Shown: one piece after another, positions 6,995-56,473 of the stretch
How positions within the stretch are numbered: the first letter of the stretch is position 1
Layout: each line of letters begins with the position of its first letter
Source of the DNA: Octopus vulgaris
Taxonomy: Eukaryota
Length of the DNA stretch: 64,000 bases
Assembly (NCBI GenBank): GCA_951406725.2
Contig: OX597830.1
Span: 73,718,001 to 73,782,000, forward strand
Direction of reading: 5' to 3'
Made by a program: the position numbers and the translations under genes
The notes under the pieces: model-generated
Told to the model about the DNA's origin: nothing
Database searches by the model: none
What the model saw: only the letters and a program-made list of their open reading frames with translations

Positions 6995-7130
6995 ATTTCC
7001 TGAAGATTTCTCTTGAATGAAACAGTTCTAGTCCTGTAGAATCTCCTTCTATATAATAAATTAATTTTACTCTGCTATGTATTGAGTACCTTATTTACTG
7101 TGGTTAACCCCGAATCAACCCGGGACCTAC
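6995..7130 (+). ncRNA. Type-I hammerhead ribozyme-like motif in Penelope-type remnant
   Basis: TTC-CTGAAGA-T TTC tctt GAA T-GAA-ACAG ttctagtc CTGT-A-GAA (6997-7041), followed by AATAAA; flanked by (TA)n. Confidence 0.6.
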
Positions 7131-7982
7131 ATATATATATATATATATATATATATATATATATACACACATATACAAATACATAAATATATGTATATAT
7201 ACAAAATATATAATTTATATATATCTGTTATATATATGTATATATATATATATATATAATATACACGCACATATATATGTGTATTATTTTATACACACAC
7301 ACAAGTATATGTAGAAATATATATATATGCAACCACACATACAACCATACATACACACATACATATTAGAATGAACTCTTCCCTTTGACCCCATTTTCTG
7401 CCCCCAGACCACCACCAACACCACCACCACTACACCCAACAGTAATTCCATCACCTAGACCCACTACACTACTCTATCCCACATCCCTTGAAAATCTTTG
7501 TTGCTACGGCGGAGAAAGTCGGACTTAGAGCCATTAAGAACAGTCCTGGGATAAATCTTTCTCTAATGGCCGAAATAAATGGGCGACTTTTGAATGGTTG
7601 AGACCGTCTTGCTTTAACGGGTGGGGATATAGGAAACTGGTGGTACTGGTGGTGGCGGTGGGGTTTGATGATAATGATGATGGTGGTGGCGATAGCAACG
7701 ATGGAGTTGATGGTTTTTGATGATGATGATGATGATGATGATGATGATAATGATTATGGTGGTAATGGTGGTAGTCTTGGTGATGATGGGAATGTTTATA
7801 ATGTCGCTGAAGAGGAATAGGAGGAGAAGAATAGTAGTGGTGGTAGTACTAATTGTGGTGAAGGTGATGACTATGATGATGGCGGTATTGGCAACGCTTT
7901 GAAATATGAAGTCCAGTGTAAGATGAAAAATGAAATCTTAAGTATAATGTTTGATACGCTTTTTAAAAATTATTTTCATATA

Positions 7983-8100
7983 CAGTAATCCCTCGACTAT
8001 CACGGGTGTTTCGTTCCAAAAAACCCGCGATAGGTGAAAATCCGCAAAATAGAAACAGTTGTGTATATTTTTTTCATTATTTTTATAATTTGTATATATT
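7983..8100 (+). mobile_element. pogo/Tigger-like DNA transposon end
   Basis: TA|CAGTAATCCCTCG terminus typical of pogo/Tigger TIRs; partner TIR not seen. Confidence 0.55.
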
Positions 8101-8159
8101 TATTTTATTATAAATGCAAATCAACACCACAGAGGGATCGATATAAACTAAAATAATCC

Positions 8160-8580
8160 TTTCTACTATAGTCACGAGGCCTGGATTTTGGGGGTGGAGG
8201 ATAGTCGATTACATCGACCCCAGTGTTTCACTGGTACTTAATTTATCGGAGCCCGAAAGGATGAATTGCATAGTCGACCTCGGTGGAATTTGAACTCAGA
8301 ACGTAGCGACGAGCAGAGTACCGCTAAGCATTTCGCCCAGTGTGCTAACGATACTTATTTCTTTGTTGCCCACAAGGGGCTAAACATAGAGGGGACAAAC
8401 AAGGACAGAGAAAGGGATTAAGTCGATTACATCGACCCGAGTCGAAACTGGTACTTAATTTATCGACCCCGAAAGGATGAAAGGCAAAGTCGACCTCGGC
8501 GGAATTTGAACGTAGCGGCAGACGAAATACCGCTAAGCATTTCGCCCGGCGCGCTAACGTTCCTCCCAGATCGCCACCTT
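8160..8580 (-). mobile_element. SINE family A, composite
   Basis: Two core units plus both tails. Confidence 0.9.
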
Positions 8581-54500: not shown

Positions 54501-55429
54501 CGGTGGTGGTGACGGTTGCAATGATGGTTGTTAGGCTGTTGTAGTTGCTGCCGCCGCTGATGGTGGTGGTGGTGGTGGTGGTGGGTGGCGGTGGTGATGG
54601 TGGTGGTGGTAATGGTGATGAATGTGGTGGTCGTTGTGATGCTGTTGATACTCTTGTTGCTGGTTGTGGTGGTGGTGATGTTGATGGTGCTAACTATTGT
54701 CGCGTTATTATTTTGTTGTTGCAATTGGCGGCGATGGTATTAGTTGTATTCGTGCTCGTGCTCATGCTGGCGTTGGTGGTGGTAGTGCAGCAGCAGCAGC
54801 AGCAGTAGCAGTAGTAGTAGTAGTAGTAGTGGTAGTGGTAGTGGTGGTGGTGGTGGTGGTGGTGGTGGCGGTGGCGCCTGTAATAGTAGCAGCAACAACA
54901 GTAGCAGCAGTAGTAGTAGTCGTAGTAGTAGTAGTAGTAGTAGTAGTAGTAGTAATAATAGTGCTGATGGTGGTGGTTGTATTGGTAGTGGTGGTAATAG
55001 TTGTAGTGGTGGTGGTGACGGCAGTCATAGTAGCAGCAGCAGTAATTGTAGTAGTAGTAGTAGTAGTAGTAGTAGTAGTAGTAGCGGACGTATGTTTGAG
55101 GTGTTGGCGGTGGCATTCGTAATGGCGATGGCGGCGTCTTGAGATTTACTACACAACTAATTGAAGGACTCGTCACATACAATGCCATCGTTAGAATATT
55201 GAGAGAACGAGAAGGCAAATGTGGTTTTGTGAATGCGCATGCTTGTGTACGTGTGCGTGAGAGCATGCCTAAGTGTGTCTCTCTGTGTGTAAGTGTGCAT
55301 GTGTGAGTGTCTGTGTACGAGAGTAAAAGAGTGTGTTAACGACGTAGAGTTAGAGATTAAGATTGATAAATACTTTAAGATACATGTATATACATATATA
55401 GATCGTTAGCCACTACACACATTTTCTCT

Positions 55430-55610
55430 CTCCTTTTTTTCTCTCCTTTTTTCTCTCCTTGTTTCTCTCCTTGTTTTTTCTGTGTCCCTTTCTGTAGAGG
55501 AGCGTAGGCTCGAAACGTATAAGACTTTTTCTATTCCTGAGCGTTATACTAATACATCTATTTGTTTTGTACACCACCTGTCTTCGTCTTTTGTTTTTTT
55601 CGTAAACTCT
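55430..55610 (+). ncRNA. Short repeat carrying minimal hammerhead-like motif (CUGUAGA variant)
   Basis: CTTT-CTGTAGA-G-GAGC gtag GCTC-GAA-ACGT-A-TAAG (55488-55523); ends at (TA)n. Confidence 0.55.
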
Positions 55611-56324
55611 ACATATATATATAACATATATATATATATATACTATGTACGTATGTATGTGTGTGTATGGATGTATGTACGTATACATGCGTGTGTATGT
55701 ATATAAATAACTGTATATATACGCACTTAAACGTGCCTACAAACACATACACGCACACAGGCACACGCTCACACACACACACACACATGTGTTTCTGTGT
55801 GCATCTGTTTGTTTATAAATGGTAGAAGGAATACATTCACAATAAAAGGCATCTCGGTTTTATATATTACTGTTTTTGCTTTAGATTTTAATTTTGGTGC
55901 TTCCTTTTTTTGTAGTTTTTGTTCGTTAAAGTCGGAACAGTTTGTTCGATTGGCAGCAGCGGATCAATATTGTGTTTTGATAAACAAAACAAAGAAGGAT
56001 GCAGGAAAAACCTGTTTACAAAATAAATTGACATGGCGACCGACAATATTTAGATGACCATTGATAATGGCTGACCTTTTATTCGCTAAATCGATTGAGA
56101 AGAGAGAGAGAGAGAGAGAGAGAGAGAGAGAGAGAGAGAGAGAGAGACGGGAACAGAACAGAGGTGGCGGTTGTACCACTTGATATGTCTAAACAATTTT
56201 GATATATTCGAAAATAGGTTTAAGCGCGTACATATATATGCACACAGACACGCATATATATACATATATATATATATATATATATATATATATATATATA
56301 TATATATATATATATATATAGGGA

Positions 56325-56473
56325 GACTTTACGAAAAAAATCAAAAGACGAAGACATGTGGTGTACAAAACAAACAGATGTATTAGTATAACGCTCAGGA
56401 ATAGAAAAAGTCTTTTACGTTTCGAGCCTACGCTCTTCTACAGAAAGGGACACAGAAAAAACAAGGAGAGAAA
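56325..56473 (-). ncRNA. Inverted second copy of the 55430 element with hammerhead-like motif
   Basis: Minus strand CTTT-CTGTAGA-A-GAGC gtag GCTC-GAA-ACGT-A-AAAG (56447-56412). Confidence 0.6.

Follow-up and report, generated by a model that had tools for sequence, protein, structure and literature searches.

Hammerhead-ribozyme-shaped motifs in Octopus vulgaris DNA as probable terminal fragments of Hydra-clade Penelope-like retrotransposons

Six short hammerhead-ribozyme-shaped motifs, which by their sequence would come from about four repeat families, are present in the 64-kb stretch of Octopus vulgaris DNA analysed here (contig OX597830.1, hereafter the window). The motifs probably mark 80–170-bp terminal fragments of several families of Hydra-clade Penelope-like retrotransposons, copied into (TA)n by the reverse transcriptase and endonuclease of the autonomous element. 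In families studied outside the window (outside families, loci and copies below), 5' ends concentrate in a narrow zone directly upstream of the ribozyme and below a TATA-like box. Thus, the units are likely run-off cDNA by-products and not independent non-autonomous elements. All features are listed in Table 1.

Table 1. Hammerhead-shaped motifs and associated features in the window.
Feature	Position	Strand	Description
Type I hammerhead motif	6997..7041	+	Canonical core, U-U at 10.1/11.1; helix III of 16 nt, imperfectly palindromic; starts directly after (TA)n; unit extends to ~7130, where (TA)n begins; grammar, covariance E 1e-4
Tail hairpin	7069..7087	+	4 bp, 2-nt 3' bulge, 3 bp
Type I hammerhead motif	9974..10036	+	U4C core, 6-bp helix I, long helix II; helix III ACUC-A-GAGU; GUU site; covariance E 4e-4
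Tail hairpin	10079..10101	+	One C-A mismatch; 9974 unit ends at ~10138 in (AT)n
Type I hammerhead motif	28555..28593	-	Long arm of head-to-head pair; U4C core; helix III ACUC-C-GAGU; GUA site; covariance E 3e-9; DNA profile E 3e-5 with tail
Tail of long arm	28448..28554	-	Hairpin at ~28494-28515 with 3-nt bulge; ends at TA/CA microsatellite
Head-to-head junction, 17 nt	28594..28610	.	Gaps of 5–40 nt in outside pairs (n = 15)
Short arm	28611..28682	+	Hammerhead 28611-28648 as in 28555; without hairpin; ends 34 nt past hammerhead in (AT)n; covariance E 2e-8
Second subtype	55462..55612	+	Motif 55488-55523 with one helix I mismatch; A6U core; loop-less ACGU helix III; base added after A9; lacks the Hydra hairpin; end of unit in (TA)n
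Inverted convergent copy	56321..56473	-	96% identical to 55462..55612, at a distance of 734 nt; motif 56412-56447; ends in (TA)n
Likely decayed head-to-head pair	27465..27600	.	+ arm from 27504, 5'-truncated - arm at ~27465-27497; weak
Possible decayed unit	22556..22622	-	7-bp helix II, palindromic helix III, broken core; missed by grammar and covariance model

A strict hammerhead grammar, which allows one core change, finds exactly five loci in the window, and these are the five units called clean in the preliminary description (6997, 9974, 28555, 28611 and 56412). No locus is found in the reversed window or in any of 25 block-wise dinucleotide shuffles. This grammar was adjusted after the units had been seen; its first version returned the 28.6 kb pair and two unrelated places, nothing else. 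In each clean unit, helix I is followed by the C-N-G-N-N-G-A core, helix II, GAAA, a self-complementary helix III and GUH, with the three helices arranged around the CUGANGA/GAAA/NUH core according to the grammar. The core is fully canonical in 6997 only; three clean units carry U4C and one carries A6U. A covariance model built from 14 outside units alone places the same five at ranks 1–5 among 17 window matches (E-values in Table 1; 0.08 for 56412), and it finds 6997 and 9974 although neither entered the search pattern. On this evidence the five clean units are real. The motif at 55488, described earlier as having one mismatch in helix I, is retained as the inverted copy of 56412, with an E-value of 2.1 in the outside-only model.

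The sequences of helices I to III differ among the four window families while pairing is retained, as had been noted before, and at outside loci at least three inner pairs are kept in 16 of 26 distinct helix II regions. The earlier statement that the units fold as hammerheads is not confirmed and describes a drawn structure: none of ten stretches folds better with its flanks than shuffles do (z from -1.4 to +2.0). No Rfam hammerhead model is among the 150 matches listed of 411 in a window-wide search or among the 78 matches to 28450-28682. These matches are below threshold, of miRNA type and driven by microsatellites or hairpins.

Blastn links units only inside the two inverted pairs. Accordingly, one dispersed family becomes about four, and the proposed density of roughly one unit per 7–10 kb becomes one per ~16 kb, given four independent clean loci. 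Four further units had been listed as decayed (22562, 27504, 37848 and 10263). None of them passes even a relaxed grammar, which finds eight loci in the real window compared with a shuffle mean of 0.8, and weak support exists for 27504 only. There the core heptamer and GAAAC are kept, helix I is lost and an inverted partner shares ~30 nt; judged by these features, the unit is likely real. Its E-value is 1.1 in the outside-only covariance model and 6.1 in model R2, which includes window hairpins, so that the top three matches of R2 are circular. GAAA is missing at 37848 and the unit at 10263 is unsupported; chance is the likely reading of both. The preference for TA repeats is confirmed, as each of the ten named units has a (TA)4+ tract no more than 144 nt away, compared with 29% of random unmasked sites that have one within 150 nt. 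All six motifs are within 93 nt of such a tract and their units end at (TA)n.

The proposed link to Penelope elements holds and can be sharpened to the Hydra clade by RNA motifs, layout and outside loci with Hydra-type ORFs. On the basis of hammerhead type, (TA)n and the head-to-head pair, four units (6997, 9974, 28555 and 28611) appear to match the Hydra clade; each has a Hydra-type hammerhead near its 3' end. This is not found for 55488 and 56412, a loop-less subtype without the Hydra tail, which is probably a comparable remnant of a different Penelope clade. A pattern derived from unit 28611 yielded 135 matches in 120 outside loci. Hydra-type ORFs are matched by 21 of these 120 loci, six of which are the queries' own loci. 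In metagenome contigs, the same hammerhead is located 99–185 nt after the stop codon of Hydra-type RT-endonuclease ORFs and is followed by a bulged-hairpin tail. The outside ORFs L048 and L068 (721 and 722 aa) contain RWR, DKT, YRDD, CxCx5C, YIG, CxxC and CxH, as defined for Hydra, and a tandem layout is present in L048, L068 and L018. A DNA profile of 18 ORF-linked ends matches 28599-28489, tail included (E 3e-5). Furthermore, helix III and the 3' strand of helix I are identical in Hydra-2_Ajap and unit 28611. In the supplement of Craig et al. (2021; PMC8557442), the one helix III motif found is confined to Hydra consensi.

No Hydra ORF remnant was found in the window (best E-value 0.27 with tblastn and 1.9 with a profile), and the clade therefore rests on RNA motifs and layout, not on an ORF linked in this genome. 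A missing ORF is expected if the units are end fragments. Pfam detects no RT or GIY-YIG beside the units in 51 read-through translations; this negative carries little weight, since intact Hydra ORFs escape Pfam as well (no family in three outside ORFs). By blastn, no direct pseudo-LTRs flank an ORF in the window. A decayed endonuclease end, suggested by eye at 22620-22950, was dropped since neither tblastn nor the profile supports it. The Naiad clade, with no canonical hammerhead and an N-terminal endonuclease, was rejected given the full hammerheads present here. The patterns searched in viral contigs and in prokaryote genomes gave no matches, nor did a PDB sequence search with L048. Look-alikes in an atlas search fall into animal HTH/GIY-YIG/RVT clusters, which is a lead only. 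A LINE-like ORF at 42336-42896 matches only distant proteins of marine invertebrates.

The downstream segment pointed out in the preliminary description is confirmed by blastn at three places in the window (7056+, 10071+ and 28495-), each just 3' of a clean unit. Judged by its substitutions, this segment is a predicted covarying bulged hairpin in the tail of the element. In an alignment whose rows were picked by a pattern that itself contains the outer stem, 89% of cells are paired and 14 two-sided changes occur (0 of 500 shuffles). A strict hairpin descriptor accepts one of the three window hairpins. By-eye reading shows the same hairpin motif at the 3' ends of Hydra-2_Amil and Hydra-2_Ajap, and a second hairpin copy precedes the start codon in outside ORF-bearing loci. 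Literature searches found no account of the tail hairpin or of the 5'-end clustering, and the available text of Craig et al. mentions neither; the predicted RNA hairpin beside the ribozyme is apparently undescribed.

Statistics of ends and promoters refer to outside families, mostly two related ones, and to intact hammerheads, the only ones that the search pattern detects; in 27 of 63 and 7 of 29 copies the sequence stops at the end of a contig or locus. Among uncensored copies, the 5' ends lie within 13 nt in 33 of 36 (family A) and 21 of 22 (family B). Of 60 uncensored 3' ends of family A, 44 fall between +24 and +36 and another 14 between +97 and +103; the long 3' ends of family B were left out due to an indel in the ungapped reference. 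Of 18 representatives, 13 have a TATA-like hexamer between -40 and -31 (background 75/2680), and of 19, 9 have an initiator-like A between -8 and -13 (background 166/2680); both windows were set after the data had been seen, and the representatives are related and hand-picked. Head-to-head pairs occur at 15 outside loci, and 10 of the 12 measured consist of a long and a short arm. The pair 28555/28611 likewise has an inverted, 5'-truncated partner and a tail on one arm only.

In this organism, 4069 contig pieces of run X1 map to the 28.5 kb unit. Truncation within the unit affects many inverted arms (joints from 28486-28563), and the summed contig depth, which is not a copy number, drops several-fold across the 5' half of the hammerhead. 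Thus, not all 5' ends are at one site. A single substitution is listed within the hammerhead, and it falls on the central, unpaired position of helix III. The raw-read runs X22 and X23 yield only five and zero reads, respectively, which is at odds with a high-copy repeat. Run X9 is RNA by guess only and does not count as evidence of expression.

In the proposed mechanism, a TATA/initiator-like promoter just upstream of the hammerhead would start a transcript that continues into the next tandem unit. On the model of anole Poseidon, the protein would bind near the hairpin and nick TA-rich DNA, and reverse transcription would begin at either of two hairpin-flanking sites (~+30 or ~+100). After a start in the 5' copy, synthesis would run off at the RNA 5' end a few bases above helix I and produce a short, ORF-less unit. 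A second, inverted copy would result in a head-to-head pair with one long and one short arm. The ribozyme is predicted to cut weakly, as a dimer or with help of the protein, and solo genomic copies would be mostly inert. More tentatively, Hydra-clade Penelopes across animal phyla might possess TATA box, initiator, hammerhead and conserved bulged hairpin as one fixed module, with the hairpin as RT-binding site, and most genomic copies might be integrated 'strong-stop'-like cDNAs reaching from the hairpin side to the transcript start. If so, the hammerhead-rich dust of such genomes would directly reflect the replication cycle of Penelope, which is still unsolved. Two window families would then propagate with a U4C core, which would mean that cleavage is relaxed or rescued by protein.

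The preliminary description regarded the units as non-autonomous and of Penelope type. As true elements of this sort they would be SINE- or retrozyme-like, transcribed by themselves and moved again by Penelope proteins. This is unlikely, even though the ends are discrete, an ORF is lacking and contig pieces are many. Non-LTR retrozymes are also non-coding, carry a type I hammerhead and are proposed to derive in animals from Penelope pLTRs (bioRxiv 10.64898/2026.07.22.740005). However, they form tandem arrays with a hammerhead per unit, whereas the window units are solo or inverted; as a candidate the non-LTR retrozyme was rejected, with no unit in a tandem array among the 150 rows listed of 187 and no direct copies by blastn. 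In copies that carry an ORF, the identical sequence forms the 3' UTR. Furthermore, a copy loses its putative promoter because the clustered 5' ends lie downstream of the TATA-like box, although the (AT)n tract upstream of a copy could still serve as one. The anatomy fits dead-end fragments of autonomous elements better than a self-propagating family. Slightly less probable again is the same Hydra origin with a 5' boundary fixed not by run-off but by an endonuclease cut or template switch at an AT-rich site above helix I, or by self-priming. In the anole element, the protein cleaves both strands at an ATT motif of its own pLTR region (PMC11167929), ATT is present at -9 in families A and B, and self-priming has been given as the explanation of head-to-head palindromic junctions (PMC3846280). 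This reading leaves unexplained why the TATA-like box keeps a fixed distance of 31–40 nt in families whose sequences there are different. It is highly improbable that the motifs match by chance in microsatellite-rich DNA or belong to the ends of some other kind of repeat, for instance to the terminal inverted repeats of MITEs. The folding result, the Rfam matches listed and the convergent 55.5/56.4 kb pair would suit such readings, but the empty shuffles, the outside-only ranking and the tie of the same motif to Hydra ORFs oppose them; for the four Hydra-type units they are already refuted.

Penelope hammerheads have been known since 2014 and the Hydra clade, which includes an Octopus family, since 2021. 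The present analysis adds the anatomy next to the ribozyme, namely a covarying tail hairpin, two flanking 3' ends and a sharp 5' boundary below a TATA-like box; it offers a concrete, testable model for the origin of pseudo-LTR fragments and inverted pairs. The same anatomy supplies a short RNA signature by which Hydra elements can be annotated; their proteins escape Pfam.

In the available text of Craig et al. (PMC8557442), Hydra hammerheads share short palindromic helix III types (ACUC-N-GAGU, ACAG..CUGU), a U-U pair at 10.1/11.1 is common and (TA)n is preferred by 26 of the 27 families listed. As in Hydra-2_Ajap, Hydra-2_Amil and Hydra-1_Obim, the type I hammerhead of the window units is ~30–100 nt from the 3' end. 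The 3–4 bp palindromic helix III, U-U or G-C at 10.1/11.1, (TA)n targets, the inverted 5'-truncated partner and an optional tail are further likenesses to the elements described there. Unlike these, the window units have no ORF and a tail of ~70 nt instead of 30–40 nt, and two window families carry U4C, whereas U4 is found in all Hydra rows of the table given there.

The minimal hammerheads of metazoan Penelope-like elements (Cervera & De la Peña 2014, PMC4209133) are, like the window units, mostly solo and highly variable, and their opposite-strand pairs, 100–700 bp apart, resemble the window pairs. They share the extra base after A9 and G10.1-C11.1, and their loop-less palindromic helix III fits 55488/56412. 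The core variant described for them is U3-A8, compared with U4C and A6U in the window, and the 55/56 kb family lacks a link to an ORF. In Anolis Poseidon PAc (Frangieh et al. 2024, PMC11167929), the tail is delimited by two sites downstream of the hammerhead at which reverse transcription begins, as proposed here, and AT-rich nicking is comparable. PAc belongs to another clade and its ORF starts within the hammerhead, whereas the tail in Hydra loci is a 5' UTR with two hairpins; the mechanism would be carried over by analogy alone.

Insertion of PAc in vitro does not require the ribozyme, which needs protein in order to cut (PMC11167929), and activity of the minimal hammerheads is low and dimer-dependent (PMC4209133). 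U4C and A6 changes lower activity in vitro. The core changes U4C and A6U seem to argue for weak ribozyme activity and may weaken dimeric cleavage. U4C is found in none of the 135 outside matches, and a U4C core throughout a family is relevant to the question of whether Penelope ribozymes have to cut at all. Dimeric cleavage is plausible from modelling, as in the predicted dimer folds of four of the six units helix III pairs between the two molecules.

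A type I hammerhead grammar (at most one core change, helices I and II of at least 3 bp each, self-complementary helix III) returns five units from the window and no others: 6997 (+), 9974 (+), 28555 (-), 28611 (+) and 56412 (-). The reversed window gives no match, nor does any of 25 local dinucleotide shuffles. The grammar was tuned after the units were known and thus the cleaner test is a covariance model trained on 14 units from outside metagenome loci. This model places all five at the top (E-values of 3e-9 to 0.08). Units 6997 and 9974 had no role in the search pattern that retrieved the outside loci. 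The five clean units of the preliminary description are therefore real, and their type I layout is matched by the grammar, but monomer folds are no better than those of shuffles. In dimer folds, intermolecular pairing of helix III is present in four of six units and absent in 55488/56412. The units had been regarded as one dispersed family. Similarity detected by blastn is confined to the two inverted pairs, 28555/28611 and 55488/56412, so that about four families occupy the four clean loci.

Penelope hammerheads as such are of a known kind, and the window units are further members. The Hydra clade of Penelope-like elements was defined by Craig et al. 2021 (PMC8557442) and has a C-terminal endonuclease. 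In the available part of that paper, every Hydra family carries hammerheads except two that are flagged, and 26 of the 27 listed families are inserted in (TA)n; one listed family is from Octopus bimaculoides. The helix III types in its hammerhead table match those of four window units, and Hydra-2_Ajap agrees with unit 28611 in helix III as well as in the 3' strand of helix I. By eye, 9974-10075 has the core-flanking letters and a 10-nt stretch in common with the ends of the Octopus consensus Hydra-1_Obim.

A pattern derived from unit 28611 retrieves at least 120 loci with at least 135 matches from metagenome data. Hydra-type ORF matches are present in 21 of the 120 listed loci (four near-full), and the ORFs of loci L048 and L068 have the diagnostic motifs of the clade. 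The distance from the ORF end to the hammerhead is 99–185 nt in four of the listed loci. A DNA profile of 18 ORF-linked ends matches 28599-28489 including the tail (E 3e-5). The suggested association with Penelope ORFs is thus directly observed in outside loci with a matching hammerhead, whereas the window holds no Hydra ORF remnant. A second hammerhead-like core lies upstream of the Hydra elements in L058 (134-162) and L048 (-, position 1359 of the reversed locus); these probably belong to other Penelope families nested in shared TA-rich sites.

The pair 55488/56412 has an ACGU helix III without loop, A6U and one extra base after A9. These features fit the minimal hammerheads in the available part of Cervera and De la Pena 2014 (PMC4209133), and the Hydra tail is absent. 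A 12-nt tandem of about four copies, consisting of the 5' end of the 55488 unit, occupies 55420-55480 (+) and looks like slippage at the insertion junction.

Three copies of the shared downstream segment are present in the window, all directly 3' of clean units as described before; the segment corresponds to a hairpin with an outer stem of 4 bp, a 3' bulge of 2 nt and an inner stem of 3–4 bp. A strict descriptor is matched by 35 of 119 listed outside copies with at least 100 nt downstream versus 25 of 1180 random 120-mers. Most of the listed copies that fail stop short of the hairpin; among the three window hairpins only that of 6997 passes. In an alignment of 16 hand-picked rows (13 outside, three from the window) 89% of the cells are paired, with 14 two-sided changes. 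This pairing is reached by none of 500 shuffles, and slid controls give 17–57%. As the rows are related and were chosen on the outer stem, the covariation is supportive and not a formal test. A second hairpin copy is located upstream of the start codon in L018, L048, L058 and L068.

In the outside family A (63 copies among the listed matches), most 3' ends fall into two clusters that flank the hairpin, one at +24 to +36 (44 of the 60 uncensored listed copies) and the other at +97 to +103 (14 copies). For the 5' ends, the distance to the motif is at most 13 nt for 33 of 36 uncensored listed copies of family A and 21 of 22 of the outside family B; contig or locus ends censor 27 and seven copies, respectively. 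The tail hairpin and this clustering of 5' ends around a ribozyme of known type constitute a mechanistic side-finding, of which no description was found in the literature searched, a selection thin on subscription papers.

Head-to-head pairs are present in at least 15 outside loci with a spacing of 5–40 nt, and 10 of the 12 measurable pairs in listed loci combine a long with a short arm. The window pair 28555/28611 is similarly built (junction of 17 nt, arm ends at +34 and about +107). In L058, a hammerhead-plus-tail unit on a (TA)n tract (300-530) lies immediately 5' of a full element's body and may show a 5' pseudo-LTR in formation.

Contig pieces from the sequencing runs X1 (4069) and X9 (405) align to 28436-28630. 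The listed substitutions touch the hammerhead only at the central, unpaired position of helix III. The U4C position has no alternative letter among those listed, and thus C4 looks family-wide, although the depth there is far below that over the tail. Thirteen of 15 listed joints run from a left arm truncated at varying points into the junction region. Head-to-head pairs are therefore recurrent and within-unit truncation is common in the organism. The raw runs X22 and X23 contributed five and zero reads in this interval, and no copy number was derived.

Of 18 representatives, 13 carry a TATA-like hexamer whose first base lies at -40 to -31 (background 2.8%), and nine of 19 have an initiator-like A at -8 to -13 (background 6.2%); both windows were chosen after data inspection. 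For rotifer Penelopes, TATA and Inr-like motifs and solo pLTRs are already noted in the available part of Arkhipova 2013 (PMC3846280); that of Schostak 2008 (PMC2377424) gives an internal promoter without TATA for Drosophila.

According to the accessible portion of Frangieh et al. 2024 (PMC11167929), reverse transcription of anole Poseidon starts internally at two sites, defining the tail, and AT-rich DNA is nicked; cleavage by the hammerhead depends on protein, and the ribozyme is dispensable for insertion in vitro. Transferred from Poseidon, run-off appears the likeliest origin of the fragments. The Hydra transcript would begin a few bases upstream of helix I, priming of reverse transcription would take place at (TA)n next to the hairpin of the element's 5' copy, and cDNA synthesis would run off the RNA end, giving a unit without ORF and frequently with an inverted partner. 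Promoter use, protein binding, run-off and cleavage are putative steps. Alternatively, the 5' boundary may be set by the endonuclease or by a template switch, or the units may be truly non-autonomous, as originally proposed. In the available part of PMC3088659, U4C lowers in vitro activity with viroid infectivity still allowed, and an A6C hammerhead is slow. Strong cleavage by the window units is thus not expected.

None of the four units first listed as decayed passes a relaxed grammar. Unit 27504 is likely real, and an inverted partner was found; 22562 is a possible decayed unit, and 37848 and 10263 are unsupported.

Further hammerhead-like features of the window
Position	Strand	Feature	Reading
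27465-27497	-	inverted, 5'-truncated partner of unit 27504; missing from the preliminary description	
17097-17125	+	core heptamer, then GAAACGU and U, directly after a microsatellite; poor helices	possibly a further decayed minimal hammerhead
280-315	-	core heptamer, 4-bp stem and GAAAC; helices I and III do not fit; no hammerhead match in Rfam	probably chance or decayed

The window DNA is animal and rich in microsatellites, with masked simple repeats making up 26% and LINE-like remnants present. A non-LTR retrotransposon ORF, presumably R4/Dong-like and with numerous relatives in marine invertebrates, is represented by its 3' end at 42246-43169 (-) (zf-RVT match in Pfam, E 1.5e-5). A broken LINE-like RT C-terminal region was identified by eye at 48700-49664 (+), for which a Pfam search gave no match. 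Within 38400-40300, ORF translations about 840 nt apart are nearly identical, which suggests a local tandem duplication or an assembly repeat.
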